Part shown: in pieces, positions 8,693-57,955 of the stretch
Numbering within the stretch: the stretch's first letter is position 1
How the letters are laid out: each line of letters begins with the position of its first letter
The notes under the pieces: model-generated
The model's input: only the letters and a program-made list of their open reading frames with translations
Databases searched by the model: none
What the model was told of the DNA's origin: nothing
From: Gemmatimonadota bacterium
GTDB taxonomy: Bacteria; Gemmatimonadota; Gemmatimonadetes; Palauibacterales; KS3-K002
Length of the DNA stretch: 64,000 bases
Assembly: GCA_039586795.1 (NCBI GenBank)
Contig: JBDHJS010000003.1
Span: forward strand, 64,001 to 128,000
Direction of reading: 5' to 3'
Program-made: the position numbers and the translations under genes

Positions 8693-8710
8693 TGTAGCGA
8701 GGCTGCTACA
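8693..8710. promoter_or_regulatory. Palindromic upstream activator site
   Basis: TGTAGC-GAGGCT-GCTACA, a perfect 6-bp inverted repeat about 100 bp from the wzc sigma54 site. Confidence 0.65.
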
Positions 8711-8870
8711 GCACTTCAGGCGACTTGAAGGCGATTGTGGTATTGGGCCAACAGGGCTGGGCCAGGTGGTCCGCCTCGCTGGCCCGTCAGAAGGCCGGAA
8801 CGCAAGTGATGGGTTGAGAACCCCAAGCCTTCCGGCCCCTAACCGCCCGGGCGGTGGGGTTCAAATGTTC

Positions 8871-8886
8871 CGGCCTGATCCCTGCA
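8871..8886 (+). promoter_or_regulatory. Candidate sigma54 promoter for second NtrC-type regulator
   Basis: CGGCCTGATCCCTGCA, GG-N10-GC. Confidence 0.4.
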
Positions 8887-8973
8887 AGATCCAATTGAGT
8901 CACGATAATACCCGCCGCGGCCACTGCCTCCGGAGACGAGGCAGCCAGTGGAAAACACCGTGGAGGCTTGTTG

Positions 8974-10521
8974 ATGTCCAGTTCCCTGTCCGGCACAAAC
9001 AGCGGCGATGGAGACGTGCTAACGCCAGCCCCCGCTGGCCTTTCATCTGAGGAAGGTACGCGCGGTACCGAATCGGTGATCCCGCTGAGGATCCTGATTG
9101 CGGATGACGACCGTACGTTGCTCGAGAGCTGCGCGAGTATCTTGGAAATTCAGGGTCACGAGGTGACCTTGTCGGCGCGAGGCCAGGAAGCGCTGGATAT
9201 TCTGCGACGTCGCCGTTTCGACCTGGCGCTGATCGATCTGTACATGCTGGACGTGTCGGGGATGGAGCTATTGCGGGCCAGCCTCAAAGCGAACCCCGAC
9301 CTGATTCCGATCATCATCACGGGCAAGCCAAGCGTGGATTCGAACATGGAGGCGATCCGCGCCGGCGCCTGGGACTATCTTCCGAAGCCATTCTCCGCGA
9401 CACAATTGCAGGTGATGATCGGCCGGGCGGCGCACGCCGTGCTGGGAGCGCGCAAGACGCAGGCTCTCCAGCAGGATATCGAGACGCAGCACGGCCACAG
9501 CGAAAAGGTGAAGGTGCTGGGGATCTCACCCGCGTTCCAGCGGATCGTCGAGGTCTGCCGCCGGGTGGCGCCCACCGATGCCTCAGCTTTTGTCACCGGA
9601 GAAAGCGGGACGGGCAAGGAACTGATCGCCCAGTTCATTCATCACCACAGTCGACGGGCGCGGAAGCCGCTCGTCCCGATCAATTGCGCCGCCTTGCCGG
9701 AGACGCTTCTGGAATCCGAGATGTTCGGACATTGCAAAGGCTCGTTCACGGGTGCGGTGCGGGACAAGCCTGGCCTCCTGGAGATCGCCGACGGCGGCAC
9801 GATGTTCCTGGATGAGATCACCGAGATGTCACAGGCCATTCAGGCGAAGTTGCTGCGGGTAATCCAGGACGGCGTGGTTCGACGAGTCGGCAGCACGAAG
9901 ACGGACGCCGTGGTCAACGTCCGCTTCATCGCCGCGACGAACCGCGACCCGGAGGAAGCCGTCGAATCCGGCACACTCCGCCAGGACCTGTACTTCCGGC
10001 TACGTGTGGTGCCGATACGCGTACCACCGCTGCGGGAGCGGCCCGAGGACGTCCCGATTCTGGCCGAGCACTTCCTGCTGACCTACTGGAAGCGGCACCG
10101 TGAGCGGGGCGCCGAGCCGCCGAAGTTCACCGCCGCCGCCACGCGAGCGCTGCAGGACCGGCAGTGGCCAGGCAACGTCCGCGAGCTGCAGAACGCTATC
10201 GAGCACGCGGTCGTGTTCCTCGAGCCGGGAGCCGATATCAAGGCCGAGGACGTCCCATCCGTTCAGGACAAGGTGCCTGCTCAGGAGGGCTCCCTATTCG
10301 AACTCAATTGGCTCGACGAGCCCTATCACATCGCCCGCGATCGGATGACCGCGGAGTTCGAGCGGCGTTACCTGGTTTGGGTCGTGAACCGAGCGGCCGG
10401 CAACATGTCCAAGGCCGCCCGCATAGCGGGAATCGACAGGACGACGATCTATCGGCTGATGGAGAAGCACGGCCTGCGGCGTGATGCCATGGTCGCGCAG
10501 AACTCTCAAGACACTCCGTGA
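8974..10521 (+). CDS. Sigma54-dependent response regulator, NtrC family (paralog of 1-1340)
   Basis: GGAGG then ATG 8974. Complete REC (ADDD, IDL, KPF), [27 protein letters not shown] and HTH. Confidence 0.95.
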
Positions 10522-10608
10522 CGCCGACAGGATCGGTTTGATCGTAGCACCACGTTTCTTTTTCGTTGGTGCTGTCGAGTTTTCTTCTTCTTCAAGCAAG
10601 CGCTTTCC

Positions 10609-10626
10609 TGTAGCACCGTCTCCACA
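10609..10626. promoter_or_regulatory. Upstream activator site
   Basis: TGTAGC-ACCGTC-TCCACA, followed by IHF-like AATAAAcaacTTG (10694-10706) and sigma54-like GCGCACAGCCGTTGCA (10732-10747). Confidence 0.55.
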
Positions 10627-10836
10627 ACTAGCAGATGCATTGCTACGTAGCGTGAGTACATCAGTTTCCGGACGGCCCACCTAAGTACTTGTAAATAAAC
10701 AACTTGGATATTGGCACGGAACGGCCCAAACGCGCACAGCCGTTGCACCTGCATGTGAGCGCTTAACCGAAGTACGCCTTGGCTTGCCAACCCGCCGGCG
10801 AGTCAGACCTGAATCACCACACAACGCGGAGTTGGG

Positions 10837-11601
10837 ATGGAGGCATCGACAGTACCCACGCGAGAGCACTATCGCGCTCAGACTAAGCCACTTGCGCTGG
10901 AGAACGGCAACGGATCCGCGGGCGGGTTGAGTGAAGGGTCCACTGCTTCGCATGAGTTGGCTAGCGAGCGTGCTCGACGCATTCTGAATTTGGCGGCCGC
11001 ATTTGTGTTGCTTGTTCTCAGCACTCCGGTCATGATCGTCATCGCGCTGGCGATCAGGCTGACCTCTTCCGGTCCGATCTTCTTCGTTCAGCAGCGCGTT
11101 GGCATCGACCGCCGCAACGGTGGACGGCCAACCGGCAACTGTCGGCGGCAGACGGATGCGGGTGGGCGGCCCTTCAAGATCTACAAGTTTCGCACGATGC
11201 ATTGGAACGGCGGCAACGGTGATCGTCAGGTGTGGGCAAGTCCTGAAGACCCACGCGTCACTCGGTTGGGCCGCGTTCTGCGCACGTACAGGCTGGACGA
11301 GCTACCTCAGCTCATCAACATCCTGCGCGGAGACATGAACCTGGTCGGGCCACGGCCAGAACAGCCCAAGATATTTGACGATCTGCGTTCCAAAGTGACC
11401 GGCTACGAACGGCGCCAAGCTGTGCGACCGGGGATCACGGGGTGGGCGCAGGTCAATCAGCATTACGACCGGTCGGTCGAGGATGTGAAGAAGAAGCTGG
11501 CGCTGGACCTCGAGTACATCGGCAAGCAGTCGGTACGAGAGGACTTGAAGATCATGCTCCGTACGGTGCCGGTAATCCTGTTCAAGGAAGGCGCCTGGTA
11601 A
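10837..11601 (+). CDS. Priming sugar transferase (polyprenyl-phosphate phosphoglycosyltransferase, Bac_transf)
   Basis: FKIYKFRTM, LDELPQLINILRGDMNLVGPRPE, RPGITGWAQV, LDLEYI. Confidence 0.93.
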   Translation: MEASTVPTREHYRAQTKPLALENGNGSAGGLSEGSTASHELASERARRILNLAAAFVLLVLSTPVMIVIALAIRLTSSGPIFFVQQRVGIDRRNGGRPTGNCRRQTDAGGRPFKIYKFRTMHWNGGNGDRQVWASPEDPRVTRLGRVLRTYRLDELPQLINILRGDMNLVGPRPEQPKIFDDLRSKVTGYERRQAVRPGITGWAQVNQHYDRSVEDVKKKLALDLEYIGKQSVREDLKIMLRTVPVILFKEGAW

Positions 11602-11621
11602 GCGGAGACCCGCCAGGTAGC

Positions 11622-11666
11622 GAACGCCGGTCCCCTCTCACTGCAGAGGGACCGGCGTTCTTCTTT
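11622..11666 (+). terminator. Intrinsic terminator between convergent genes
   Basis: 13-bp stem GAACGCCGGTCCC/GGGACCGGCGTTC followed by TTCTTT. Confidence 0.75.
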
Positions 11667-11721
11667 AGGTAGCTGCTAGACTGGGCAACCGTTAGGTACA
11701 CCCCAACAATCTCGGGTTCCG

Positions 11722-13032
11722 CTAAGGCAACAACGAGGGAAGTTGCCCTGCAGGCGCCACGATGACCGTATACATGCTCACCGGCGGTCCCATATCCTGT
11801 GCAACGTTGCTTCCCAGGGTAACACGCCCTGCTGGGAAGATCGCCAGCAGCACGCTGAAGCCGCCCGTGTCGTCCTTCTCGTTGTAGATGTCCAGTCCGG
11901 TATCCACGAAGCCATCCAGCCAGTCGGGCCGTGGGCTGACGCGGTCGTCATGGGCGACGAAGACCGCGACCTCCTCACCGACGTCGAACGACAGGAAGTT
12001 GCTGGCAGATGGGCTCATATTCTTGTCATCGTTCGCCGTGCGGATATAGGTCACGCCAACGAAACTGGGCGGAATCGTCCGGAATTCACGATTCCGATCG
12101 GTATACTGGTGGACGTTGGACTGTTGCGGGAACAGATCGGTGGCCGCGAGTCCGCCCTGGTCGGCCTGGTAGGATCGGCCGCTCGATGCCGACACGCTCG
12201 ACACCTGGGCCGGGCTGGCCGGCGCCGGCGTCGACAGCCCCACGGAGAAGGCGACGGTATAGTCGCTGTTATTGGTGGTGCCGCCCGAATCGGCACACCG
12301 CACATAGAGCTGATAGGACTGCCCAGTCTGTAGACCGACGATGGGCGTAGCATGTCCCGTCGTGTTGGTCTGCTCGAAGGGGGTCATCTGGCCATAGGAG
12401 GTACCGCTCTGATTGCTCCAGGCGCAGACGGCATTCTCGTCGGTGGCCACGTGGAGCACCGTCTCACTCGTGCCGCTAGCGAGGTCTCCCCGTGGCTGAG
12501 AGTGCACGATGCGTGGTGAGCCCGCCGGGCTCGCCGATGGCAGGAATCCGACCGTGAAACCGACCTCGTAGTCGGTGTCGTTCACGTTTCCGGCGCCATC
12601 GTCACACCTGACATACGCCGAGTAGGCGCCGCCATCTTGAAGTCCACCGTACCGCGCGACGTGTTCCCGGCCTCCGGTACTGGAGAACGGAGTCATCGAC
12701 CCGAAAGCGGTCCCCGCGACATCACTCCAGCCGCACGTCGCGGCCCTGTCAGTCGCAACCGCGATGATAGCCGAGCTAACACCACCAGCCAGCTCCCCGC
12801 TGGGGTAGCCGGCCGATATGACCGGCGCCACGCCCGGGTTGGGTGGCGGCGGTGGCGGCGGTGGTGGTGGAGGCGGCGGCTCGTTCTCACCCTCGTTCTC
12901 CGTAGGGTCTTCCTCGGGCGGATCGTTCCCATCGTCTGGGGGAGCCACTAGATCACCACAGGAGGCGAGGACAAGGGCCATGCTGAAGAGAATACTCCAG
13001 CGAGCCAGTCCTCTGGACTGCTTTCGAGACAT
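11722..13032 (-). CDS. Lipoprotein with polyproline linker, two tandem 93-aa Cys-containing repeats and a conserved C-terminal domain
   Basis: Lipobox LASC, 13 consecutive Pro, repeats containing ATD..A.C.WS...YVRC.D, and a C-terminal TANDDK...NFLSFD...VAHDDR domain. Confidence 0.8.
   Translation of the reverse strand: MSRKQSRGLARWSILFSMALVLASCGDLVAPPDDGNDPPEEDPTENEGENEPPPPPPPPPPPPPNPGVAPVISAGYPSGELAGGVSSAIIAVATDRAATCGWSDVAGTAFGSMTPFSSTGGREHVARYGGLQDGGAYSAYVRCDDGAGNVNDTDYEVGFTVGFLPSASPAGSPRIVHSQPRGDLASGTSETVLHVATDENAVCAWSNQSGTSYGQMTPFEQTNTTGHATPIVGLQTGQSYQLYVRCADSGGTTNNSDYTVAFSVGLSTPAPASPAQVSSVSASSGRSYQADQGGLAATDLFPQQSNVHQYTDRNREFRTIPPSFVGVTYIRTANDDKNMSPSASNFLSFDVGEEVAVFVAHDDRVSPRPDWLDGFVDTGLDIYNEKDDTGGFSVLLAIFPAGRVTLGSNVAQDMGPPVSMYTVIVAPAGQLPSLLP
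12238..12825 (-). repeat. Tandem intragenic repeats (12547-12825 and 12238-12516)
   Basis: Two 279-nt units encoding aligned 93-aa repeats. Confidence 0.8.
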
Positions 13033-13293
13033 CCTACTTCACCTCTTCGGGGACTCACGACATGTGGGGTCCGCCGCGCTTGCAGCTTAGACTAACAAAG
13101 CGCGCTACTAGCCGGCGGGTACGCGCCTTGGTCTAAGATGCGTCAAAGCTGCCTTCTTCTCAACCCCGCCGCCTTAGTGGACTCCATCGAGACGTGCAAG
13201 CGAGGTGCCGCCGCCGCCGAGGGAGGGCCCTGCCAGCTAAATCATTCTAGAACAACAGCTTACGGTCTCCGTGATACGCCGATTGCCCGGTTT

Positions 13294-13309: not shown

Positions 13310-13459
13310 GTAGTTCCTGCAGATCCTAGGCAGACTCTGCACACCGGTACGGGACGTGCGACCGAGACATCGTCATGCTGTTCACCGAACCAGTCGTTAT
13401 CTTGGGGCTGGCCACGCCGAGCAGCGGAGGACAGCGAGGCGGGTAACACCGGCGGAGAA

Positions 13460-19230: not shown

Positions 19231-19246
19231 TGCAAGAGCCAGGCTC
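19231..19246 (-). promoter_or_regulatory. Sigma54-like promoter for GNAT-ACP-LarA-ligase operon
   Basis: GAGCCTGGCTCTTGCA, 15/16 identical to the site at 36897-36912. Confidence 0.5.
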
Positions 19247-19360: not shown

Positions 19361-19378
19361 TGTTGCGTCTCTGCAACG
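19361..19378. promoter_or_regulatory. Upstream activator site between divergent ACP operons
   Basis: TGTTGC-GTCTCT-GCAACG; sigma54-like ACGTACAAACTTTGCA at 19470-19485 (+). Confidence 0.65.
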
Positions 19379-19509: not shown

Positions 19510-21810
19510 GTGGGGTGCCGGACGGACCACGCGTCCGGTGGCAGAGATCGAGAGAAGGTGACCAAGGTGGAAGCCAATACGGCTGATAGACCGGGCGGCG
19601 ACCTGCCCGAGCTGCTTAGAGAGGCGCTGAACGGGAGCGCTGAGACCGCGGATATAGTGGCGGCGCTGACCGTGCTGGCCCCGTCGTCCGCGGCTGCGTG
19701 GCTGACAGAGAATGAAGAGCACGTACGATCCCAATGGGCGGAGGAGGATCTGAAGCGCGTCATCACCCGGGTGGTGACCGAGTGCACGGAGCGGGGCGGG
19801 AACGCGGAGGCCACTTGCGCCGTCGAGTTGGTCGAGCGCTACGGTGACACAATAGACCCGGATACTGCAGCGGCCGTCGTCTCCACGTTGGATACCGAGG
19901 AGCAAGCCGGAGTCGTTTCGAAGATGACCACGGATGCTCTCAATCGCTGGCCGACTCATCAGGGGCTGCTGCGCCTTGCCGTAGATCAAGCCGTGGAGGC
20001 GAATGATGCGGAGCATGCACACGGCTTGCTGACGCGACTCGCCCACGTGGATGACGGCCAAGCCAACCTGAGCTACGTGTGGCGAAAGCGGAAGGTTTTG
20101 CCGAAGGAAGGATCGCCACCGATCCGAATCGCGCTTCTCAGCTCATTCACGATCGATCCCCTGGCGCACTACCTGGACGCTGAGTGCCGGGCGCTCGGTC
20201 TCGAGCCAGAAGTATACGTCGGTCCGTTCAACTCCTGGACACAAGAAGTCCTGAATCCCGAATCCGGGTTGCGCCGCTTCGAGGCGGAGATCGTTTTTCT
20301 ATCCGTCTCGATCGACGACCTGATCCCCGAGCTTGCGGGCTCGCCGTCGATCGAGCAGCTGGACGAACTGGGACGGACGGCAGTGGAACGCGTGATCTCT
20401 GTATCGCGGCAGTTCACCGCCTGGTCGGATGCGATGCTGGTCGTGCATAGCTTCCATTCCGTCTACGCCGATCCCTACGGTATCGCGAAGGGTCGGAGGG
20501 GGCGCGCGGCGTGGTTGGCGGAGCTCAATGCAGCGATGGCCGAAGAGCTGGCTGGACTCCCGCGCGCGTACATGCTCGACGAAGGTGAGCTGCTACTTCG
20601 ACGAACCGACGGCCCGGCTGACAATCCCAAGATGCGGCACATAGCGGCCCTGCGCTTAACCGGCCCCCTGCTCCGGCAGACCGCCCACGCGTACGCTCAT
20701 TACATCGCTCCGTTCAAGGGACTTTCCCGCAAGTGTGTCGTCCTGGACCTGGACAACACGCTCTGGGGCGGGATAATCGGTGAAGACGGTCTGCACGGCA
20801 TCAAGCTAGGCAACACGGCGCCCGGCTCAGAGTATCAGGAGTTTCAGCGTTATCTTCTCTCGTTGACAGAGCGAGGCTTCCTGCTGGCGGTCAACTCGAA
20901 GAACAACCTTGATGACGCGATAGAGGTATTTCGGTCCCACGAGGGTATGGTATTGCGGGAAGATTCGTTCAGCGCGATGCGCATCAACTGGCGGCCAAAA
21001 CCCGAGAACATCCTGGCGATCGCCGAGGAGCTCAACATAGGGGTCGATTCCCTACTCTTCGTCGACGACAACCCGAACGAACGCGAGCTGATGCGGCAGA
21101 TGGCGCCGGACGTCCTGACTGTTGACCTCCCGGACGATCCATCGCTCTACCGATCGACGTTGGAGGCACTACCTCAGCTTCAGAAGCTGGTCGTCACCGA
21201 TGAAGACAAGACGCGCACAGAGCTATACCAGGCGCGGCGCAAACGCGAAGAGGCGAAAGTCGATGCCGGCTCGCTGGAGGATTATCTGAGATCACTCGAC
21301 ATCGTCGTCGAAATCGGACAGGCGAACGAGTCAACGCTGCCGCGCGTGCATCAGATCTTTGAACGGACGAATCAGTTCAACCTAACGACGCGTCGCTACC
21401 AGGCCGGCGAATTGGCGGCATTTGCATCCGACGCGGTTCACCGATTGTACACGCTTCGAGCGAAGGACCGTTTTGGTGATCACGGGATCGTTGCCACGGC
21501 GTTGGTACGTGCGGACGGGGGTTGCTGGGTGATCGACAGCTTCTTGATGAGCTGTCGCGTGATCGGCTACGGTGTGGAGACGGCCCTCCTGTCCAAGGTG
21601 AGCGAAGACGCGGTGGCTTGCGGCGCGCAGGAGCTGGTCGGCGAGTACATCGAGACGGCGAAGAATGCGCCGGCGCGTGACTTCTACGCGAGACATGAGT
21701 TTAGCGAGCTAGGCACGAAAGACGACGTGCAAAGTTGGAAGGCTACACTAGCAGACAAAGCGATGCCGTGCCCGGACTGGGTGCAGGTGGAGGTTGCAGA
21801 TGACGCCTGA
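19510..21810 (+). CDS. FkbH-like HAD-IIIC glyceryl-ACP synthase with N-terminal extension
   Basis: LDLDNTLWGG, NSKN, FVDDNP, TNQFNLT, DRFGDHG, FLMSCRV. The start may instead be GTG 19558 or 19567. Confidence 0.92.
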   Translation: MGCRTDHASGGRDREKVTKVEANTADRPGGDLPELLREALNGSAETADIVAALTVLAPSSAAAWLTENEEHVRSQWAEEDLKRVITRVVTECTERGGNAEATCAVELVERYGDTIDPDTAAAVVSTLDTEEQAGVVSKMTTDALNRWPTHQGLLRLAVDQAVEANDAEHAHGLLTRLAHVDDGQANLSYVWRKRKVLPKEGSPPIRIALLSSFTIDPLAHYLDAECRALGLEPEVYVGPFNSWTQEVLNPESGLRRFEAEIVFLSVSIDDLIPELAGSPSIEQLDELGRTAVERVISVSRQFTAWSDAMLVVHSFHSVYADPYGIAKGRRGRAAWLAELNAAMAEELAGLPRAYMLDEGELLLRRTDGPADNPKMRHIAALRLTGPLLRQTAHAYAHYIAPFKGLSRKCVVLDLDNTLWGGIIGEDGLHGIKLGNTAPGSEYQEFQRYLLSLTERGFLLAVNSKNNLDDAIEVFRSHEGMVLREDSFSAMRINWRPKPENILAIAEELNIGVDSLLFVDDNPNERELMRQMAPDVLTVDLPDDPSLYRSTLEALPQLQKLVVTDEDKTRTELYQARRKREEAKVDAGSLEDYLRSLDIVVEIGQANESTLPRVHQIFERTNQFNLTTRRYQAGELAAFASDAVHRLYTLRAKDRFGDHGIVATALVRADGGCWVIDSFLMSCRVIGYGVETALLSKVSEDAVACGAQELVGEYIETAKNAPARDFYARHEFSELGTKDDVQSWKATLADKAMPCPDWVQVEVADDA

Positions 21811-22027
21811 GGATGTGGTGAGCCGGGTATTCGGTGTATCCCGCAACAAGGTAGACGACGACACTTCCAACACCACGTTGCCCGAGTGGGATTCGATGGG
21901 CCACGTGAACCTCATCATCGAGCTCGAGTCCTCATACGGAGTGTCCTTTTCGCCGGACGATGCCCTGCAGATGACCGACGTGGCAGCCATCAAGCGTGCG
22001 CTGCAAAGCCGAGGAGTGTCTTGGTAG
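21800..22027 (+). CDS. Acyl carrier protein 2 (FkbH partner type)
   Basis: GGAGG then ATG 21800; WDSMGH motif; overlaps the FkbH-like stop. Confidence 0.9.
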   Translation: MTPEDVVSRVFGVSRNKVDDDTSNTTLPEWDSMGHVNLIIELESSYGVSFSPDDALQMTDVAAIKRALQSRGVSW

Positions 22028-25516: not shown

Positions 25517-25648
25517 AATTCTTATTGCCCCTGGCCTTCCACCTCGAACCGCCGGTAAGCGTAACAATATACATGCCGGGACTGTCGCGACTTTGGGCTC
25601 GATTCTCGACCGGCTCGCCCCAAATTCGAGGGACTCCTCGTGCTAGCG

Positions 25649-25666
25649 TGTTGCATATTCGCAACG
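25649..25666. promoter_or_regulatory. Upstream activator site between divergent operons
   Basis: TGTTGC-ATATTC-GCAACG, flanked by CGGCATGTATATTGTT (25563-25578, -) and CGGTCCCGGTCTTGCA (25774-25789, +). Confidence 0.65.
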
Positions 25667-28856: not shown

Positions 28857-29999
28857 ATGACCATAACTGTTGCCTTCGTCGCGCTCTCGGCGCTCGTCAC
28901 CCTGGGGTGGGTCTGGGACATCTCGTGGCAGACGACCATCGGCCAGACCGGTTTCTGGACTCCACCGCATATCACCGTGCTGCTGGCGGGTGTCGGTTTC
29001 GGTGTGCTGTGCGTTCGAGCCGTGAAGAGTTGGAGCGACCGACAACCCGGCGCTCGGCTGTCCCCGGCTTTCGTCGGATCGATTCTGGGAATCTGCGGTG
29101 TTCTGGTGATGCTTGGCGCCGCATTCTACGACTACTGGTGGCACGCCACACAGCTGCCTCAAACCATGGTGCTGATACCGCCGCACAAGATCGGCGCCGG
29201 TGCGATCGTCGCCATCCAGACGAGCGCTGTCCTGATTACCCTCGCTAACCTGAGCGAGGTTCCGGGTCAACAGTCACGATGGGCCACGATCGTCTACGTG
29301 GTGTCCGCCGGGTTGCTGCTGTTTCTGATCGCAACGCTGGCAACGGAGTACGTGGGAAGACCAAATCTCTGGCAAAGCTCCGGGTTCTACAAAGCAAGCG
29401 GGTTGGTTTTTCCCGTGCTTCTGGTTGCTCTCGGGTTGTCACCGCGACTCAAGTGGGGAGCAACGGCTGTTGCCGGGATCTACATGGCGGTCGCGCTACT
29501 GATGATCTGGGTACTGCAACTCATTCCAGCGCAACCGCGTCTCACGCCGGTTCACAACCCGGTGACGCACATGGTGCCGCCACCGTTTCCGTTGCTTCTT
29601 CTGCTCCCAGCTGTCGCCATCGATCTCCTGAAGCAGATCGCTCTGCGATCCCGCTTCCACATCAGCGATTGGGTGCTCGCGGGACTGATCGGCGTGACGT
29701 TCGTTGGGATCATGTGGGTGGCCCACTGGTACTTCGCTGACCTGCTGCTCTCTTCGCTCGGACGCACCTACTTTTTCGCAGCCGACCAGTGGCCCTTCTA
29801 CACCCGCCTCGGACCCTGGCGTTATCAGCAGTGGGTTCTCGACTCAGGTGCCTCCACCTTACTGAAGCGGATCGCCCTCGCCGTGCTGTTTGCCGCCGCA
29901 TCGGCCCGGGTCGGCCTCTGGGTCCGGCGGGCAGCGCTGGCCGCGACCGCCGCCCGGGAAAGCGGCGTCGTCTCAGAGTCGCCCACTGCTGTGTCATAG
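28857..29999 (+). CDS. Polytopic membrane protein with two D-x3-H/Q...PPH motifs
   Basis: About 9-10 hydrophobic segments; WDISWQTTIGQTGFWTPPH and YDYWWHATQLPQTMVLIPPH. Confidence 0.7.
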   Translation: MTITVAFVALSALVTLGWVWDISWQTTIGQTGFWTPPHITVLLAGVGFGVLCVRAVKSWSDRQPGARLSPAFVGSILGICGVLVMLGAAFYDYWWHATQLPQTMVLIPPHKIGAGAIVAIQTSAVLITLANLSEVPGQQSRWATIVYVVSAGLLLFLIATLATEYVGRPNLWQSSGFYKASGLVFPVLLVALGLSPRLKWGATAVAGIYMAVALLMIWVLQLIPAQPRLTPVHNPVTHMVPPPFPLLLLLPAVAIDLLKQIALRSRFHISDWVLAGLIGVTFVGIMWVAHWYFADLLLSSLGRTYFFAADQWPFYTRLGPWRYQQWVLDSGASTLLKRIALAVLFAAASARVGLWVRRAALAATAARESGVVSESPTAVS

Positions 30000-30007
30000 A
30001 TGCAACA
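29990..30007. promoter_or_regulatory. Upstream activator site
   Basis: TGTGTC-ATAGAT-GCAACA, 70 bp upstream of a sigma54 site. Confidence 0.55.
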
Positions 30008-30229: not shown

Positions 30230-30526
30230 GTGAGCACTGATATCCTGCAGATCATCGTGAGCTGCACGCGCGAGGTTGGCGAAGAGCAAGAGATCAACCT
30301 ACCCGGCGATCTTGGAAGCGAGACACGTCTCTTCGGCCGCGAGGGGCTGTTCGATTCCGTCGGCCTGGTCAGTTTGGTAGTAGCGGTGGAGGAAGCGATC
30401 GAGGACCAGTTCGGTCAGGCCGTCAGTCTGGCGGATGAGCGAGCGATGTCTCAGTCGAAGAGTCCTTTTCGCTCCATCGGCACACTTGCAGAGTATGCCA
30501 ACGTTCTGATCGCGGAGAGCCAGTGA
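30230..30526 (+). CDS. Acyl carrier protein 3
   Basis: GGGAG then GTG 30230; GLFDSVGLV site; ERAMSQSKSPFRS. Confidence 0.85.
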   Translation: MSTDILQIIVSCTREVGEEQEINLPGDLGSETRLFGREGLFDSVGLVSLVVAVEEAIEDQFGQAVSLADERAMSQSKSPFRSIGTLAEYANVLIAESQ

Positions 30527-36896: not shown

Positions 36897-36912
36897 TGCA
36901 AGAGCCAGGCCC
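36897..36912 (-). promoter_or_regulatory. Sigma54 promoter for ABC exporter operon
   Basis: GGGCCTGGCTCTTGCA, GG-N10-GC. Confidence 0.6.
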
Positions 36913-36991: not shown

Positions 36992-37009
36992 TGCTGCATT
37001 GACGCAACA
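36992..37009. promoter_or_regulatory. Upstream activator site
   Basis: TGCTGC-ATTGAC-GCAACA within a longer imperfect inverted repeat; IHF-like TTTCAAtaagTTA at 37066-37078. Confidence 0.6.
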
Positions 37010-41320: not shown

Positions 41321-41336
41321 CGCAAGAGTCGGACCC
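41321..41336 (-). promoter_or_regulatory. Sigma54 promoter for deacetylase/methyltransferase operon
   Basis: GGGTCCGACTCTTGCG, GG-N10-GC. Confidence 0.55.
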
Positions 41337-41415: not shown

Positions 41416-41433
41416 TGTTGCGCCTAAACCACA
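41416..41433. promoter_or_regulatory. Upstream activator site between divergent genes
   Basis: TGTTGC-GCCTAA-ACCACA, about 80 bp from sigma54-like sites on both sides (+ strand TGGCCCCGTTCGTGCG at 41514-41529). Confidence 0.6.
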
Positions 41434-47938: not shown

Positions 47939-48205
47939 AGCGAACCGAGCTAGGGCAACGGATATGCCGCTTTTTGGGGACTGGATGCCAGATAACTAGT
48001 GCCTCCCGGGCCTGGCGTCGTGGGATCGGTGCAACAGAGCTCCCGATCCCCGCACCCCGCCTCGCTGCGAAAACCAACTATTGTAAAGGGTTCCGAGCGC
48101 CACGAGCCGGTTTTGCCGACCCGGTGTCCGCCACCATGAGATGGCACGACATCGAGGCGCCAACCATCACCGCTCTGGAGGCGATGGACCCCCGTGTGCA
48201 GAGCC

Positions 48206-49402
48206 TCAGCTCGAATAGCTGTTGAGCAAGTGCAACACTTTCTCGACCTCCACTTCCGAGGCCAGAGAATGCGTGGGTACCGTGATGAGCGTTCGGGCCA
48301 GCTCCTCCGCCCCGGGCCAACCACCGGAGGCCCCCCGTAGACGGGCTCCCAGCTGCGGGAGCGCAGCCAGAGTCGTTGGATAGGCGGGAGCGATGCCCAG
48401 CCGCGCCGCATCTCCGGGAGCGTGGAAGCCGGCCATCCCTTCTTGCAGCCGAAGCGGAAGACGCAGATAGCCAGGTGAAGCGTCTTCGGCGACCTGAATC
48501 GGCCGAACGGCGGGCCCGGTCAGTTCGCTCAGCATAGCTTCCGCCTTCTCGCGGCGGCGAGCGGCCTCGTCCCACGCGTCCGGCCAGGTACGCGAAAGGA
48601 TGGCGGCTGACGATCGGGGCAATGCCGCTATGGGCGTCGGCTCATGGTAGACCGTTTCGCCGAGTCCAAGAAACGGGAGCGATGCCGGAAGGTTGTAGAG
48701 GCTTGGCCGAGCGAGGGTCCACTGAGCGACCCCACCGAGGATCACTCGGACCTCGCTGCTAAGACCCCCCGTCGACGTCGGCGCTTCCGGCGCCGCGGCA
48801 ACCTCTTCTCTTAGGAGCAACGCACCGCCTCGTACACCCGTCCAGCCTTTACCACGTCCGAAACTCAACACGCTGAGCTCGCCGAGCGAGCCCAGAGGTT
48901 TTGAACGCCACGCGGCCCCATGACCCTGGGCCGCATCCTCGATGGCGATGGCAGAGTAGGACGACGTGATCTTCTCAACAGCGTCCCAGTCTACCGGAAT
49001 TCCGTAAAGCGGGCTGATGACCACGATCCGCGCGCCATCATCGAGTACGCCGCGCAGCGAATCGAAGTCTGGCGCTAGCGTGTCAGGATCGATGTCGTAG
49101 AGCGCGACGCTCTCGCCGTATGCAACGGCCGCCGTCGCAACGTCGAAGCAAGTGAACGCGGGCAAAGCGACGGTCGCCGATCCACCCAACCTCTGACCGG
49201 CGGCTTGCAGCGACAGATGAAGTGCCTGGGTGCCACTTCCGCAAAGGATTAGCTGATCGGCGTCGTATTCCCGAGCGAGCTTGTCACGTAGCGTCGATCG
49301 CGAGTCCCGGCTAACACGCGCCGCCTGCAGCGCACCGGCCCAAGACGCGCGCAGCGAAAGGGGTGAGTGGACCGGCGGAATACGTCGCGGGAAGAAGCTC
49401 AT
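48206..49402 (-). CDS. DegT/DnrJ-family PLP-dependent aminotransferase-like protein
   Basis: SGTQAL, IEDAAQ, SFGRGKG (PLP Lys), GGAL. Confidence 0.8.
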   Translation of the reverse strand: MSFFPRRIPPVHSPLSLRASWAGALQAARVSRDSRSTLRDKLAREYDADQLILCGSGTQALHLSLQAAGQRLGGSATVALPAFTCFDVATAAVAYGESVALYDIDPDTLAPDFDSLRGVLDDGARIVVISPLYGIPVDWDAVEKITSSYSAIAIEDAAQGHGAAWRSKPLGSLGELSVLSFGRGKGWTGVRGGALLLREEVAAAPEAPTSTGGLSSEVRVILGGVAQWTLARPSLYNLPASLPFLGLGETVYHEPTPIAALPRSSAAILSRTWPDAWDEAARRREKAEAMLSELTGPAVRPIQVAEDASPGYLRLPLRLQEGMAGFHAPGDAARLGIAPAYPTTLAALPQLGARLRGASGGWPGAEELARTLITVPTHSLASEVEVEKVLHLLNSYSS

Positions 49403-49403
49403 C

Positions 49404-50450
49404 TCATGGGATGTTGCGTGACAAGAAGGGGCCTATCCTGTTGGCCAGCCCCAGTGGCAAACGGCTCCACGCCGCGGTAGCGGCTCTGAAGATGGGCCGA
49501 TCGGGTGATGGCGTCGCCGAGACTCCACTGGGTGACCATTGCGCCCAAGAGAGTTGGGCGTCGTTCCCGCCCCACTGTCTCTTGAATCGGTGCGTGCCGC
49601 TGTCTGGCGAGCAGCGACCGAAATTGAAGACCTTCAGACCGCGGGCGATCATCTGCTGCATGAACGTCCAGTACAGGAGCATGTTCGGCGCCATCCGATT
49701 GTGTTCGCGGAGCGATGACGCCCAGGTCATCTCGAACTCGTCGCGCCAGATGAACCCCGCCGCCGCGGCCACCGGCTGTTCACGCCAGTACACTGCGCCA
49801 AACACAGCGCGTTCGGCCAGGACGCTCGCAATACGCTCAAAGAAAGATAGCGGCAGGACTGGCGTGCCAAGGTCCCGCATGTTCCGAGTGAACACCGAGT
49901 AGAAAGCCTCGACCTGATCCAGGCCAAAGCGGCCCTCCATATTCTCCTTGATCGGCCTGCGAATCTGGCTGCGAAGTTTGGCCGGAAAGACCTCTTTCCA
50001 GAGTACTTCCTCGTCGGGAGGTAAGTCGAGCAACACGGTAATCTTCCTCTCCGACAGCGAAAGATCCGTCTCTACCGGATGCCGAGTACGCAGCTCGACC
50101 AGATCCACGCCCACTCGTTTCGCCGCCTCGACGGCATGCTCGGCAAGGCGCGATTGAGCCGCTGGCGACCCGATGGGTCCGCCGTAATTGAGGAACGGCA
50201 TTGACACCAGATAGTCGCCGAAGATCCTGCTCTTGACCCGCACCAGCGGAAGCGCGCCGACGATCGTGCCGTCACGATCTTGTGCGGTGTACAGGAGGCT
50301 CTCGTGACCGAGAGCATCCGCCATGACTTCGCGCCAGCCGATGAGGTGGCAAAACGTTCCGTGATCCGAGGTCGCCACGAAATCATCCCACTCGGCCGCC
50401 TCGCCCTCGAACGACCTGATCTCCAGCTCCTCGGTAGCACGATCGGTCAT
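49404..50450 (-). CDS. FemAB-related protein of the type associated with PEP-CTERM/XrtA EPS loci
   Basis: SMPFLNYGG, KLRSQIRR, NMRDLGTP, PNMLLYW, FNFGR, FKRQWG. Confidence 0.88.
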   Translation of the reverse strand: MTDRATEELEIRSFEGEAAEWDDFVATSDHGTFCHLIGWREVMADALGHESLLYTAQDRDGTIVGALPLVRVKSRIFGDYLVSMPFLNYGGPIGSPAAQSRLAEHAVEAAKRVGVDLVELRTRHPVETDLSLSERKITVLLDLPPDEEVLWKEVFPAKLRSQIRRPIKENMEGRFGLDQVEAFYSVFTRNMRDLGTPVLPLSFFERIASVLAERAVFGAVYWREQPVAAAAGFIWRDEFEMTWASSLREHNRMAPNMLLYWTFMQQMIARGLKVFNFGRCSPDSGTHRFKRQWGGNDAQLSWAQWSPSGVSATPSPDRPIFRAATAAWSRLPLGLANRIGPFLSRNIP

Positions 50451-51274
50451 AGTGATGCCACGGTGTCCGCTATGGGCCGAAAAGAGAACTCGCCAAGGAA
50501 GCGGCGCAAGCGCTTCGCGGTGCGCCCCAGCCCGCCATAATGCCTGAGCCGCGTGAGCAACGACACATCGAGCCGCGGCTGGTTCGGGTCGATCTCCCAG
50601 GGGTGTATGTAGAAGGTCGCCGGGTGTCCGCGCTGCGCGCTGCTACGGGCAGCGGCGCGGGCCAGCGAGTACGGCAGCAAGCGAAAGTAGGCACCTCCGC
50701 CCGCCGGGAGGTTGAGCTTCCCGACCCGCACTGTCGCCGGCGGCATCTCCGCGATCCTTCCAACGTCTCGTTCGATCCAGTGTGGATCCCGTCGGCCAGC
50801 CGGGTAACCGTAACCCGGACGTGACACCGGGAAGAGGCTCGAATCGTAAGCGTGGCCCTCCTCGATAAGCACATCCAGTGCCCACTCGCAGCCGGGCGTG
50901 ATGGAGAACGAGGGCGCTCGGAATCCTCGCACGGGTTCGCCGGTCAATTCCTCCAGCAACTCCTTTGTGCGTTTCACGGAGTCCCGAAAATCATCCCGGC
51001 TTTGTCGCCCGACGAGGCGATGGTCCCAGCCGTGTGATGCGACCTCGTGTCCGGCCGCTGCAATGCTGCGGACCATTTCCGGGTGCTTTTCGGCGACCCA
51101 GCCAAGGACAAAGAACGTGGCGCCGGCATCGTGCTCTGCAAACATCTCGAGGAGTTGGGAGACGCTGTTCACGACCCTGCTCTCGAAGTCATTCCAGCGC
51201 TTTCGACTGACGTGTGATTCGAAAGCCGAGACCTGGAAATACTCCTCAACGTCTACGCTGAAGTGATGAATCAT
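50447..51274 (-). CDS. Polysaccharide deacetylase, XrtA/PEP-CTERM-locus subfamily
   Basis: SVDVEEYFQV, ATFFVLGWVAE, SHGWDH, FRAPSFS, GGGAYFR, YIHPWEIDP. Confidence 0.9.
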   Translation of the reverse strand: MIHHFSVDVEEYFQVSAFESHVSRKRWNDFESRVVNSVSQLLEMFAEHDAGATFFVLGWVAEKHPEMVRSIAAAGHEVASHGWDHRLVGRQSRDDFRDSVKRTKELLEELTGEPVRGFRAPSFSITPGCEWALDVLIEEGHAYDSSLFPVSRPGYGYPAGRRDPHWIERDVGRIAEMPPATVRVGKLNLPAGGGAYFRLLPYSLARAAARSSAQRGHPATFYIHPWEIDPNQPRLDVSLLTRLRHYGGLGRTAKRLRRFLGEFSFRPIADTVASL

Positions 51275-51349: not shown

Positions 51350-51365
51350 CGCAATGTACGTGCCT
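51350..51365 (-). promoter_or_regulatory. Sigma54 promoter for deacetylase-FemAB-DegT operon
   Basis: AGGCACGTACATTGCG, near-consensus. Confidence 0.75.
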
Positions 51366-51492
51366 CTGTGAACAACCCCTTGCAATATCTTCCACTTGTG
51401 ATAGACTTTGCACTCTGCGACGCTAGGTCTGGCCGGGCCTTTCGTCGTCTAACCCCACAAATGTCGGATACTTGTAGCGCGTAGCCATCGAT

Positions 51493-51508
51493 GGGTGTGC
51501 CTCTTGCT
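51493..51508 (+). promoter_or_regulatory. Sigma54 promoter for FN3 lipoprotein operon
   Basis: GGGTGTGCCTCTTGCT, GG-N10-GC; shares TGCCTCTTGCTA with the 57984 site. Confidence 0.55.
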
Positions 51509-54125: not shown

Positions 54126-55431
54126 GGTCGTCGAACCGAATCAGGCAGATCACTCAGAAACGCGCGAGGCGGGGATCCAGCGATCTCCGCCTCGCGTTCT
54201 ATTCTGGGTCTTCTCGACGCCTGACGTGAGACAGAGACTTGCAGAGCTTCTCGAGCGCGCGACATACTGTTGCCAATGACTGCTAGCGTGAGTCTTGTTG
54301 CCCGCTTTCGATCCAACACGTTACTGAATAGCGAGTGTTCAATTCTATGAGCAGTACGCGTTTGCTACGCCTCAACAGCGCTGCCGGCCTGACACTTCTA
54401 CTTGTCGCGGGCTGTGGTTCCATCGAACCGGGCAACGGGGACGACTCGACAGACCCTAACGCCTTCATCACTGGAGTCACATTCGACTGGACCACATACA
54501 AGGAAATGGCTGACGGGTCGGACAACTGGCCGCTCGCCTGGTGCGAGGACGGCCACCAGTACACCAGCTGGGGCGACGGCGGGGGCTTTGGCGGCACAAA
54601 CCAGGATGGCCGCGTCTCCCTTGGCTTCGGTCGCATCGAAGGGGACTACCCCAACTTCACCGGCTATAACGTGTGGGGCGGCAAGGACCCGGAGAGCAAC
54701 GACGCGCTTTTCTCCGGCAAGGTCGTCTCGATGATCTGCATGAACGGTAACCTCTACGCCTGGCGGAGCTCGGGTAGCAACAACTCAGCTCTGAAGTGGA
54801 AGCAGATCATCCGGTCGACGGACAAGGCCAGATCGTGGAGCGCGGACGAGTTCCCGGAGAGCCGGTTGGAAGGTGACGTGGGTCTCCCGGGTCTGCCCTA
54901 CTTCCTCGACTACGGTCAGAACTACAGCGCCAACAGCGACGGATACGTCTATATCTACACGATCCGCATCGAGACGACGGATACCTGGGAGGTGCAGAAG
55001 CCGGGCGTGATCTGGTTGGCACGCGCCCCGGCAGCCAACGAGGCGTTCATCGATCTGGCGAACTGGGAGTGGTACACGGGCGCCGGTCCCACGTGGGGCA
55101 GCATCGATGATCGGGCGGCCGTGATTCAGGACAGCGATGGGTTCATGCGGAACAGCGCAATGTACGTTCCCGGTCTCAATCGCTTCGTCATGGTGGCGAA
55201 CCACACGGCGCGCAACCAGGGCAACATCGTGATCTACGAGGCTCCGCAGCCGTGGGGTCCGTGGTCGGTGGTGATGAAGAAGAACGGTTGGCCGGCGGGT
55301 GAGACCAGCGTCGTGTCGGCGAGCTTCGCGTTCGGCAACTTCTCGCCCAAGTGGCTATCTGCGGATGGGCGTGACTGTGTTTTCGTCTGGTTCCGACCCG
55401 ACTCCTGGAACAGCGTCGAGTGCCGGTTCGA
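52089..55431 (+). repeat. 965-nt direct duplication (52089-53053 and 54467-55431)
   Basis: Equal-length, highly similar coding copies with long identical tracts. Confidence 0.9.
54163..54205 (+). terminator. Probable intrinsic terminator
   Basis: Stem CGCGAGGCGGGGATC/GATCTCCGCCTCGCG followed by TTCTATTCT. Confidence 0.6.
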
Positions 55432-55456
55432 AACCGCGGCGACCACCGTACAATGA
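54347..55456 (+). CDS. Lipoprotein carrying only the DUF4185-like propeller domain
   Basis: Lipobox VAGC; near-identical to the N-terminal domain of 51996-54125. Confidence 0.82.
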   Translation: MSSTRLLRLNSAAGLTLLLVAGCGSIEPGNGDDSTDPNAFITGVTFDWTTYKEMADGSDNWPLAWCEDGHQYTSWGDGGGFGGTNQDGRVSLGFGRIEGDYPNFTGYNVWGGKDPESNDALFSGKVVSMICMNGNLYAWRSSGSNNSALKWKQIIRSTDKARSWSADEFPESRLEGDVGLPGLPYFLDYGQNYSANSDGYVYIYTIRIETTDTWEVQKPGVIWLARAPAANEAFIDLANWEWYTGAGPTWGSIDDRAAVIQDSDGFMRNSAMYVPGLNRFVMVANHTARNQGNIVIYEAPQPWGPWSVVMKKNGWPAGETSVVSASFAFGNFSPKWLSADGRDCVFVWFRPDSWNSVECRFETAATTVQ

Positions 55457-56638
55457 AGCGTCAGTGAAGGGTGAGCCAGCGGCGACCATCGTCATGGTGA
55501 GCGGCCGAAACATCTCGTTCTCCAGGGCATCCCACAAAGTCGGGCCCCAATGCGCGTCGCCAAGCGAGTCCCCGAACCTGACCATCACCAGATCCAGGCT
55601 AGGCACGACGAGCAACACCTGACCTCCCGCCCCCACGGCAGCAAAGGACTCGAGCGGCAGTGAAGGCCAGGCGCCATTCGAGTTGACCCACCAGCAAATC
55701 GCTGGAGCGGGGTGTGAGCGCCCCTCTGAAGGACTCGGCAAAATCGCGTTTGGGCTCAGGACGATCTCTACGAGAGTCGAGTCTATCAGTTGCCTGCCTT
55801 GCCACCTGCCCTTCTGCAACATGAGCTGACCGACGCGAGCGGCTGCCCGTGCTGAATAGAAGGCTCCGCTCCACGTTGCATGCAAGCGCATTCCGTCCGC
55901 TCTAAATGACCTACCGTAACTAATCGTCCAAGCAGACCGCGGGACACCCAACGGTTCCATGATTCGATGTTCGAGCGCGGCCTCGATATCTGAGTATGGA
56001 GAATCTTTCAAGCTGGCGGTCACGGAATAGCCGAGGGCGGCGAACGCAGGACCGCTATACATGAATCGCGTTCCGGGGGTGAAGGTGATGGGCGCTTCCT
56101 TCAGCACCGCCTCGAAGGCGCCGCGTTGGCGACCCCAGAAGACTCGCTTCCAGCCCACCTGGTCACCTTCGTCGCGATGTTCGATTCCCGAGGTGTGAGT
56201 CGCAAGATGCCGAATCGTGATTGCCGACCTTGCCGGGTCGCCGTCCCACGCTGGAATGTACGCAGCAGCCGGCGCATCGAGTTTGATCAGGCCGTCATCG
56301 ATCGCTATGGCCAGCGACATCCCACCCACCAGCGCCTTGGCCATCGAGGCCGTGCCTTCTTTTCGCCAGCGACTGTGGAACGGCGCGTACCACTCGTAGG
56401 CGATCTGGTTGTGCCTGACGATCAGCAGCGCCTTCGTTCCCTTGTCGGCAAGCCTCGCCCTCAATGTGTCCAGCTGGACGGCGCTGAAGCCCAGACTCTC
56501 AGGCGTGGCTTCGTCCCAAGCCACCACGCCCCCAATCGGCATAGGCAGCCGATCACACCCAGCCATCAAGACAATGGCAGATATGACGAGAGTGAGTCCA
56601 CCGGTCTTGTCGCCCATAGCGACAAGCGGACGGATCAT
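55355..56638 (-). CDS. Serine hydrolase, beta-lactamase/PBP-like family
   Basis: ATG 56638; SMAK (SxxK), HLATHTSG, FMYSG, IMEPLG, GAGGQ; possible lipobox MAGC. Confidence 0.85.
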   Translation of the reverse strand: MIRPLVAMGDKTGGLTLVISAIVLMAGCDRLPMPIGGVVAWDEATPESLGFSAVQLDTLRARLADKGTKALLIVRHNQIAYEWYAPFHSRWRKEGTASMAKALVGGMSLAIAIDDGLIKLDAPAAAYIPAWDGDPARSAITIRHLATHTSGIEHRDEGDQVGWKRVFWGRQRGAFEAVLKEAPITFTPGTRFMYSGPAFAALGYSVTASLKDSPYSDIEAALEHRIMEPLGVPRSAWTISYGRSFRADGMRLHATWSGAFYSARAAARVGQLMLQKGRWQGRQLIDSTLVEIVLSPNAILPSPSEGRSHPAPAICWWVNSNGAWPSLPLESFAAVGAGGQVLLVVPSLDLVMVRFGDSLGDAHWGPTLWDALENEMFRPLTMTMVAAGSPFTDASLYGGRRGFEPALDAVPGVGSEPDENTVTPIRR

Positions 56639-56648
56639 GATTAGCCCC

Positions 56649-57830
56649 TCAGGACGTGACGCGTCTGAGAAACATTCCTGCGGCGATACCAACCGCCACC
56701 GCCAGGTACTCGAGCGTCGGTGTTCTGGCGAGCCCGGTCGCAAGCGGCACAACTGCTAGGGCGAGAACCAGAAGTGCCGAGTAGAGTCCAAGTTCTTTGT
56801 GGCCGCGCGCCCAGTACGCGCCGGGCATGGCTAGACCAACCAGCCAAACACCAGTCAGAATGGCCACGAACCATCCCGGTAGACTTCCTGTGTAGTAGAG
56901 CAGAGACCAACCGAGACCCAGGGTGAAACCGAGTCCGCAAGCACTCGAGCCGTTGACCGATATGCAATGACCATCCGGCTCACGCCACACATCCACGGCG
57001 AGGCTATCGCCCTCAACCACCCCGGCCATGACCTGCTCGTTCCGCAGGTCCGGCTGATCCAAGCGCAACTCCGCGGCGCGCGTCCTATAGCGATACACCA
57101 TTGCGGTGCGATCGGGTCCCAAAAGGATGATCTCACTCTGGCGATCGTCGTAGATACTGACCAGAGAGCTAAGTCCCGTTACGGGTGGACCGGCCAGAGC
57201 CCTCGCGCGCAGCCGACTTGAGGCTTGCAGCAGGGACCGCACACTATCGGAGTTCGCCAGCCGCCTGGGCGGAATCTCGAGCGACCCGATGGTGAATTCG
57301 CTCACCTCCCCACGATACCACTTCAAGTGGCCCAGTTCCGGTGTCCACTGCCCATAATACGTTGAACGAGGAAACAATGGTTGCAGCAAGAAGCCGACTC
57401 CGGTGTGCACAACCAGAACCGTGGCCGTAGCAGCTATCACCAGGATCCGCGCCTGGCGCGGATTGGGCAGGAACCAACTCAGCGCGTAGCGGCCAATCAC
57501 TGCGCCGAGCACCGCCCCTGTCGTGTTGTAGACGATGTCTCCCAGGTTGGCAAAGCGACCCGGGATGAAGAGTTGTGCAAGCTCCAGCCCGGCGGAGAAG
57601 AGCGCGGCGATGAGAAGAACCTCTGACACACGCCTTCCTCGCAGCCCGAGGCCGATGCCGACTGGCGTGAAGAAACCGATATTCAGAAGCGCGTCCGCCA
57701 CACCGCGGACACCGCACACCAGACAGGTGACAACCACCATGGAGTCAGCGTAGCGCTGCGGGAATAACGTCACGACCAGGATGGCAGGGACGTAGATCAG
57801 CAGGACGTATTTTCCGAGGCGCGCGCGCAT
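56649..57830 (-). CDS. VanZ-like membrane protein with soluble beta-rich domain
   Basis: ATG 57830; D.LLNIGFFTP.G, LELAQLFIPGR, DIVYNTTG. Confidence 0.78.
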   Translation of the reverse strand: MRARLGKYVLLIYVPAILVVTLFPQRYADSMVVVTCLVCGVRGVADALLNIGFFTPVGIGLGLRGRRVSEVLLIAALFSAGLELAQLFIPGRFANLGDIVYNTTGAVLGAVIGRYALSWFLPNPRQARILVIAATATVLVVHTGVGFLLQPLFPRSTYYGQWTPELGHLKWYRGEVSEFTIGSLEIPPRRLANSDSVRSLLQASSRLRARALAGPPVTGLSSLVSIYDDRQSEIILLGPDRTAMVYRYRTRAAELRLDQPDLRNEQVMAGVVEGDSLAVDVWREPDGHCISVNGSSACGLGFTLGLGWSLLYYTGSLPGWFVAILTGVWLVGLAMPGAYWARGHKELGLYSALLVLALAVVPLATGLARTPTLEYLAVAVGIAAGMFLRRVTS

Positions 57831-57937
57831 GGTCGCTTTGGTTGCGTGACGGCGGCCGGCAGAGAACTGACGCGGCGGCCTGATGGTCAATAGTAGCGAA
57901 GCGGCGAAACACCGAAAGGCCACACTCCAATCATTAG

Positions 57938-57955
57938 TGTAGCATCCTCACTACA
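57938..57955. promoter_or_regulatory. Upstream activator site
   Basis: TGTAGC-ATCCTC-ACTACA. Confidence 0.6.

Follow-up and report, generated by a model that had tools for sequence, protein, structure and literature searches.

An 18-bp palindrome and its predicted sigma-54 promoters in a surface-polysaccharide locus of Gemmatimonadota: a likely regulon of two NtrC-type activators

The stretch of DNA analysed here (the window, 64,000 nucleotides, contig C102:64001-128000 of the Gemmatimonadota genome G000, 4.68 Mb and 97.8% complete) is part of an exopolysaccharide (surface-polysaccharide) locus which spans about C102:53,000-146,000, that is ~90 kb and about 60 genes, genes and start codons being predictions from our own hexamer-based caller. 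The window proteins, identified with Pfam and NCBIfam, include Wza, Wzc, Wzy, WecB and a polyprenyl sugar-phosphate transferase, and further families are glycosyl-, sulfo-, methyl- and acyltransferases, deacetylases and an ABC transporter. A module composed of a REC-GGDEF gene, wzc and a divergent activator gene is present twice, in tandem, in the locus, and the two NtrC-type activators are the sole transcription factors found by Pfam in the window. This work concerns these activators, an 18-bp palindrome recurring upstream of many of the operons and the predicted sigma-54 promoters (-24/-12 elements) next to it. The features, in window coordinates and with palindromes given without strand, are as follows.

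3..1340, + strand: activator copy 1, REC-AAA+-HTH_8 by Pfam and NCBIfam, beginning 195 nt before the window
1353..2486, + strand: histidine kinase, likely cognate, His157 conserved, N-terminal part of ~145 aa without Pfam match
4475..4488, - strand: -24/-12 element for wza-wecB, 11.8 bits, 74 bp from 4563
4563..4580: weak palindrome, 10.5 bits; second weak copy at 4587-4604, 10.1 bits
5746..8505, - strand: wzc-type polysaccharide co-polymerase / tyrosine kinase by Pfam and NCBIfam, predicted target
8580..8593, - strand: -24/-12 element for wzc, 14.0 bits, 99 bp from 8693, kept in relatives
8693..8710: strongest palindrome, between wzc and activator copy 2, 17.9 bits
8736..8753: second palindrome, 43 bp from 8693, 9.7 bits, aligned in relatives
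8872..8885, + strand: -24/-12 element for activator copy 2 (predicted self-activation), 13.6 bits
9076..10521, + strand: activator copy 2, REC-AAA+-HTH_8, true start possibly about 100 nt further upstream
10609..10626: palindrome upstream of the polyprenyl sugar-phosphate transferase, 13.4 bits; weak copy at 10646, 9.4 bits
10694..10706, + strand: IHF-like site with one mismatch between site and promoter, alone not significant
10733..10746, + strand: -24/-12-like element (CG for GG) for the sugar-phosphate transferase, 7.8 bits, 106 bp from 10609
19232..19245, - strand: -24/-12-like element (AG for GG) for an operon of an unknown gene, an acyl carrier protein (ACP) and a LarA-like ligase, 8.7 bits, 115 bp
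19361..19378: palindrome in a divergent region, 14.3 bits
19471..19484, + strand: -24/-12-like element (CG for GG) for the FkbH-ACP-GNAT operon, 9.0 bits, 92 bp
25564..25577, - strand: -24/-12-like element for GT4-GT2, 8.6 bits, 71 bp
25649..25666: palindrome in a divergent region, 13.9 bits
25775..25788, + strand: -24/-12 element for a sulfotransferase operon, 13.5 bits, 108 bp
29990..30007: palindrome overlapping the end of the upstream open reading frame (ORF), 12.8 bits
30078..30091, + strand: -24/-12 element for the small ORF-SDR-AMP ligase-GT4 operon, 9.8 bits, 70 bp
36898..36911, - strand: -24/-12 element for the ABC transporter, 12.7 bits, 80 bp
36992..37009: palindrome, 12.3 bits; towards the + strand sulfotransferase no good promoter was found
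41322..41335, - strand: -24/-12 element for an unknown-deacetylase-methyltransferase operon, 13.6 bits, 80 bp
41416..41433: palindrome centred between divergent promoters (80 and 81 bp), 12.7 bits
41515..41528, + strand: -24/-12 element for GT4, 11.5 bits, 81 bp
47955..47968, - strand: -24/-12 element for the GT2-GT2-PMT operon, 8.9 bits, 50 bp
48019..48036: palindrome, 11.7 bits; further copy at 48220-48237 in the degT 3' end, 14.8 bits
57938..57955: palindrome, 14.3 bits, 29 bp from its promoter
57985..57998, + strand: -24/-12 element for GT4, 9.8 bits

An earlier note on this DNA had listed eight related 18-mers in or at the edge of intergenic regions, under the consensus TGTWGC-N6-GCWACA, and two weaker copies. 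The eight (8693, 10609, 19361, 25649, 29990, 36992, 41416 and 57938) are each exact and each occurs once; seven are intergenic and that at 29990 overlaps the final 10 nt of ORF 28857-29999. The W at position 4 is right for this genome but becomes N across the phylum, and the consensus as worded is matched without mismatch by 8693, with one mismatch by four sites and with two by three. One of the weaker copies is real but starts at 4563 instead of 4560 (10.5 vs 3.3 bits); that at 51473, a single good half-site of 6.8 bits, was rejected. The note overlooked five sites of the window (8736, 48019, 4587, 10646 and 48220) and another seven in the rest of the locus.

The motif discovery and background scan which the note had proposed gave a consistent picture. 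Unseeded palindromic discovery on 17 intergenic regions of the window returned the same 18-mer and favoured width 18 (log-likelihood 60.3 vs 29-40 in 12 shuffles), and the motif is enriched over shuffles and coding DNA, not equally frequent in them. With up to two mismatches there are 13 matches in the window vs 3.7 +/- 1.8 in 100 dinucleotide shuffles (maximum 8), and with at most one there are 23 in the whole genome, 10 of them intergenic, including five in the window and three in the locus just outside. Scored with a matrix built from distant relatives, all eight 18-mers reach 12.3-17.9 bits; the 18 intergenic regions of the window (6,017 bp) carry 9 sites of at least 11 bits, where 500 shuffles average 0.4 and never exceed 3, and the density of such sites per 10 kb falls from 14.0 in intergenic DNA of the locus to 0.81 in intergenic DNA elsewhere and 0.24-0.38 within coding sequence.

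Seventy loci were collected around relatives of the activator, 56 of them orthologues (at least 58% identity) and 14 containing unrelated activators. The training set consisted of 50 distant orthologue loci, and both the six closest loci and this genome were excluded from it. Unseeded discovery in 222 intergenic regions of these 50 loci gave TGTnGC-N6-GCnACA, with a log-likelihood of 537.6 at width 18 vs 141-251 for widths 14-17 and 19. The window consensus with at most one mismatch occurs in the 56 orthologue loci 43 times in 88,755 bp of intergenic and 12 times in 711,870 bp of coding DNA, with one match for the reversed consensus and none for 5- or 7-bp spacers; the 14 unrelated activator loci (44,481 bp intergenic) gave zero matches. 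In genome G012, which has the activator, 7 of the 28 matches listed fall within 93 kb around it, and three single-contig genomes without the activator have 32 scattered one-mismatch matches and no cluster. Of 70 regions upstream of the activator gene, 67 contain a site of at least 8.5 bits and 23 contain two sites 41-45 bp apart. A further contrast is modest: distant wzc loci in six genomes without a detected activator have 2 sites in 16.4 kb, and the loci that carry the activator or a member of its sister clade have 52 in 117.5 kb. G066, chosen for its apparent absence of the activator, proved to have a truncated copy where a contig ends and was tallied separately.

From the DNA between site and start codon of 133 dereplicated distant regions, unseeded discovery yielded cGGcaCg-n4-nTGC, present in about 85% of them. 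Judged by its sequence this is the -24/-12 element of sigma-54 promoters, for which PMC4641369 gives the reference consensus tGGcacg / tTGCt. In the unseeded model the first G is about 80% conserved and TGA often substitutes for TGC at -12, and CG, AG or TG instead of GG at -24 recurs in site-paired promoters (window 10733, 19245 and 19471, and many related loci); a strict canonical pattern has zero matches in the window and a looser one has one. Seeding a genome-wide model with the standard consensus let it drift, and the unseeded model was used instead. In the distant loci 75% of 130 regions have the element on the side of the site that faces the gene, compared with 9% of 100 for the far side, figures which come from training data and are partly circular. 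When the model was applied out of sample to this genome, a partner element of at least 7.75 bits was present for 14 of the 15 main sites, 7.8 bits being the 90th percentile of 1,409 other upstream regions, and none of the six directions facing no gene scored above 4.9 bits. Of the 43 upstream regions in the locus, 18 combine a site with a promoter, vs 7 of 2,246 elsewhere in the genome (means with 30 column-permuted matrices, 1.1 and 6.3); these seven candidate regulon members beyond the locus are at chance level and were rejected.

The prediction of a dozen or more transcription units agrees with the 18 promoters of the locus that are predicted to be paired with a site, 14 of which lie in the window. 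The spacing of about 70-115 bp proposed for most sites is true of seven of the eight, 57938 being at 29 bp; over the 14 window promoters the range is 50-118 bp with that one exception, and both GG and GC are present in 10 of them. IHF-like sites, frequent but not obligatory between such an enhancer and its promoter, had also been suggested: the one-mismatch example at 10694-10706 is there, but matches in the window are not enriched (31 vs 25.9 expected), and in spacers of relatives there are 12 in 129 vs 1.8 expected in training loci and 2 in 34 vs 0.7 in held-out loci. The genome has two HU/IHF-family genes. A claim of helical phasing was dropped: the training set has a 10.3-bp period (n=129, R=0.39; p 4e-4 for 93 unique family-spacing pairs, p 0.03 for 35 families), but neither the held-out loci (n=34, R=0.17, p 0.36) nor this genome (n=18, R=0.34, p 0.13) reproduced it, although the phase was the same. 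By these comparisons the 18-mers are confined to the locus, paired with predicted sigma-54 elements on the gene-facing side and conserved in the phylum.

The genome encodes sigma-54 (one PF04552 match, E 1e-65) and 20 full-length sigma-54 activators, two in the locus and 18 others. The two locus activators are 71% identical to each other and have the receiver, AAA+ and C-terminal HTH_8 motifs intact, with the receiver Asp, a GSFTGA loop and the recognition helix DRTTIYRL in both. Of 81 orthologue sequences with at least 51% identity, some of which share a genome, 72 include the helix, and in 70 of these it has the form DRTT[LIF]YR[LV]; none of the 18 activators outside the locus has this form. 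No gene family but that of the activator is found in all orthologous loci, which were themselves fetched by it; the activator gene is usually divergent from wzc with one or two sites between. Orthologues form one clade and occur in 117 of 201 sampled Gemmatimonadota genomes, a tally which counts this genome and one flagged unpublished; of 31 genomes without a detected activator, 23 are also without a wzc match. The nearest titled relatives of copy 2 are from Gemmatimonadota (74-80% identity), 54 of the 56 orthologue loci have titles of Gemmatimonadota lineage and the other two are one from Acidobacteria and one 'uncultured bacterium', and no close relative was found in a plasmid collection. 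The sister clade (G128 and G136, helix DRKTIHRM) has no site in 3.2 kb of intergenic DNA, a small sample; its members L126 (G128) and L127 (G136) lie beside a REC-GGDEF-like gene and not wzc, and may use a different site.

Relatives of the kinase at 1353-2486 are found in 47 loci, directly downstream of the activator in many orthologous ones, and no Pfam family matches the N-terminal part in 33 members. A second member of this Gemmatimonadota kinase family in the locus (L004:12487-14133) has a C-terminal PEGA domain and adjoins a protein kinase-PEGA gene.

The NtrC paralogs of the window, which the earlier note had put forward as the binding proteins, are thus supported by linkage to the locus and by a recognition helix that tracks the motif, and TGTnGC-N6-GCnACA is likely to be the upstream activating site of the two locus activators, to which we give a probability of about 0.86. 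Several observations weigh against this assignment. In held-out loci a paired promoter was seen in just 34 of 74 site-bearing regions (129 of 185 in training), and the activator gene itself is paired in 3 of 16 regions only. Three of the 14 window promoters are without canonical GG and one is without GC. Genome G005, in which the activator was not found, has a site directly upstream of its distant wzc. The orthologue loci are interrelated, a few being from the same genome, so that counts overstate independence. The TGT-N12-ACA frame is common to several Fis-type HTH proteins, and therefore the assignment rests on linkage and co-variation. Finally, 8 of 26 locus regions with a -24/-12 score of at least 7.5 bits have no site, including the strong one at 13346, and therefore other activators may share the locus.

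Sigma-54-like promoters without a nearby palindrome are those at 13346-13359 (+, 15.0 bits), 12971-12984 (-, 8.0 bits), 51351-51364 (-, 11.0 bits) and 51494-51507 (+, 7.8 bits), serving genes which include two unknown ORFs, an XrtA-type deacetylase operon and fibronectin-III proteins. These genes may be controlled by another activator.

The shared frame also raises the question of whether the 18-mers are a real operator bound by an unlinked Fis-type HTH regulator, such as a further member of the set of 20 activators or a protein resembling TyrR or PpsR. TyrR, GcsR, PpsR and some Desulfovibrio activators have the frame, 18 other sigma-54 activators are encoded in the genome, and the site of G005 without a detected activator would fit; yet no PpsR passes the family cut-off in this genome, the off-locus site-promoter pairs are at chance level and therefore there is no other target set, the activator's own gene almost always has the site upstream, and the DRKTIHRM clade, in its small sample, does not, which together make the unlinked regulator improbable. 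It is very improbable that the locus activators bind the sites but act mainly as sigma-70 regulators or repressors in the manner of VpsR, TyrR or FleQ, perhaps via cyclic di-GMP. For such a role speak the REC-GGDEF genes, which belong to the conserved cassette (they cluster in 32 loci), the one site overlapping a sigma-70-like -10 element upstream of copy 1, and 57938 with its 29 bp; against it, the element found downstream by unseeded search is of the -24/-12 and not the -35/-10 type, and the sigma-54 contact loop is intact in the 81 sequences (GAFTGA 64, GSFTGA 16, GAFTNA 1), the A-to-S change at loop position 2 being listed for a validated activator in the Figure 3 legend of PMC3162934. That the 18-mers are palindromic by chance, form RNA hairpins or belong to a dispersed repeat, and have no regulatory role, could be argued from the exact fit of only one of the eight to the consensus as first worded, but this is scarcely credible: it was already refuted by the out-of-sample scans, and enrichment, a fixed 6-bp spacer with unconserved centre, confinement to a single locus, one-sided promoter pairing and conservation throughout the phylum all contradict it.

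The activator pair has a history of its own. Both copies and their closest relatives fall in one clade (support 95, quick tree) and each of the nine further genomes of the family that gave a match has a single copy, and therefore the duplication is likely to be local. Upstream of the activator, each of the six closest single-copy loci has TTGACA-N17-TAnnnT, built on hexamers which we take to be the sigma-70 consensus, and five of the six also have a -24/-12 element, 214-222 nt before the receiver domain (three about 12 bits, two 7.9 bits); L043 has no -24/-12 at its activator. Both promoter types are clear, or nearly so, in four of these six relatives and weak in a fifth. Copy 1 has the sigma-70-like pair (C102:63581-63609), with a 10-bit site at 63607-63624 across its -10 element, and no -24/-12 element at the position shared with relatives, and copy 2 has the -24/-12 element at the same position as five of six closest relatives and no sigma-70-like pair. 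The sigma-70-like pair is limited to the lineage, occurring in 8 of 70 activator regions vs 2 on the reverse strand, and in 1 of 80 other site-bearing regions. From the predicted elements of this one genome it appears that after the duplication copy 1 kept the sigma-70-like and copy 2 the sigma-54 promoter; selection and drift are inseparable from one genome, and L043 indicates that a single copy can lose the sigma-54 element.

It is possible, if doubtful, that a master switch of slime production common to the phylum has been rewired here by tandem duplication into a two-stage circuit. The sigma-70 promoter would give basal copy 1 and kinase until activator bound across the -10 element shut it off, and copy 2, made solely from a sigma-54 promoter driven by the same sites, would form a positive loop that could lock the 18 promoters on. 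Copy 1 with the kinase would then be the starter and copy 2 the amplifier, as far as one genome suggests.

One of the nearest known systems is the PEP-CTERM box of Proteobacteria with PrsK, PrsR and PrsT, a 17-nt motif ending in TTTACA with a -24/-12 element about 63 bp downstream (Haft et al. 2006, PMC1569441). Both systems join an upstream motif and a -24/-12 element to an NtrC-type activator and a kinase beside exopolysaccharide genes, and TIGR02915 (PrsR) is the top NCBIfam match of both locus activators. However, the scores are 368.6 bits for copy 2 and 342.8 for the part of copy 1 in the window against a cut-off of 502.6, the best TIGR02916 (PrsK) match is 130.6 bits against 300 and covers the kinase core only, the site here has 18 nt with a right half GCnACA and width 18 is favoured over 17, and the targets are polysaccharide synthesis and export operons rather than PEP-CTERM genes. 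Exosortase (PF09721) has no match in this 97.8% complete genome, although it lies beside the activator in 8 related loci; PEP-CTERM (TIGR02595) has no match in the genome, control genomes being silent as well. Identity with the PEP-CTERM/PrsR box was rejected on the evidence from PrsR, PrsK, exosortase and motif. XrtA/PEP-CTERM-associated families are found at 49404-51274 and 62636-64000 of the window (TIGR03019 and TIGR03006 over cut-off, a TIGR03108-like match below).

In the syp system of Vibrio fischeri a locus-encoded activator, SypG, turns on sigma-54 promoters of a polysaccharide locus after phosphorylation of its receiver Asp (PMC10162802), as is predicted here. It differs in the site (TTCTCANNNTGMDWN), in the phylum, in having no duplicated activator, and in size, 18 genes there vs about 60 genes and 18 predicted promoters here. 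The TyrR box is TGTAAA-N6-TTTACA and the GcsR site TGTAACG-N4-CGTTCCG (PMC4894688), motifs of Desulfovibrio activators are TGT-N9/11/12-ACA (PMC4641369), and the PpsR operator has the frame TGT-N12-ACA. The 18-bp frame with TGT and ACA ends and the Fis-type HTH dimer are shared with these (PMC4894688, PMC4641369), whereas GC at positions 5-6, the targets and the protein architecture set the present system apart; identity with one of the Desulfovibrio motifs is possible. A PpsR/CrtJ operator was rejected, the best TIGR02040 match being 34.2 bits against a cut-off of 275.4. At glnAp1/glnAp2 of E. coli, NtrC represses a basal sigma-70 promoter and activates a sigma-54 promoter (PMC3870243); the closest relatives likewise carry both types upstream of the activator, as sequence elements, but here the types are divided between two tandem copies, and the regulon is not one of nitrogen. 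The palindrome regulon is likely to be a new example of a familiar sigma-54 switch. A literature search that reached few subscription papers found none on this regulator or motif, a match to a catalogued motif (as in RegPrecise) being possible, and no description of a Gemmatimonadota transcription-factor regulon.

By established family behaviour the neighbouring kinase would phosphorylate the receiver Asp, site-bound activator dimers would assemble into an ATPase ring, and the DNA would loop over 50-120 bp to the sigma-54 polymerase and the promoter be opened. One site would often serve two divergent operons, the activator would also drive its own gene, and the two activators would switch on about 18 predicted promoters together. 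The regulon is a real and well-supported prediction and its presumed mechanism that of the textbook. Gemmatimonadota are common in soil and sediment and have few cultured members; the present data define for them an activator family with a likely 18-bp site and a promoter model, of use in marking out polysaccharide loci, in placing many unannotated genes in the polysaccharide pathway and in planning direct tests. The dual promoter divided between duplicated activators would be a tidy case of regulatory subfunctionalisation, in one genome.

Some minor observations concern the surrounding sequence. Six RNA runs contained 5-8% of sampled words, and four runs yielded short scattered contigs, uninformative on starts and levels; a search of Rfam gave no match. 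Three small ORFs were below the first ORF-list cut-off or overlooked: 17869-18120 matches an acyl-carrier family, while 21800-22027 and 30230-30526 have a similar context but no Pfam match. Just beyond the locus, G000:C102:44600-53083 (L003) encodes a 2,827-residue acyl-CoA dehydrogenase-ETF fusion.

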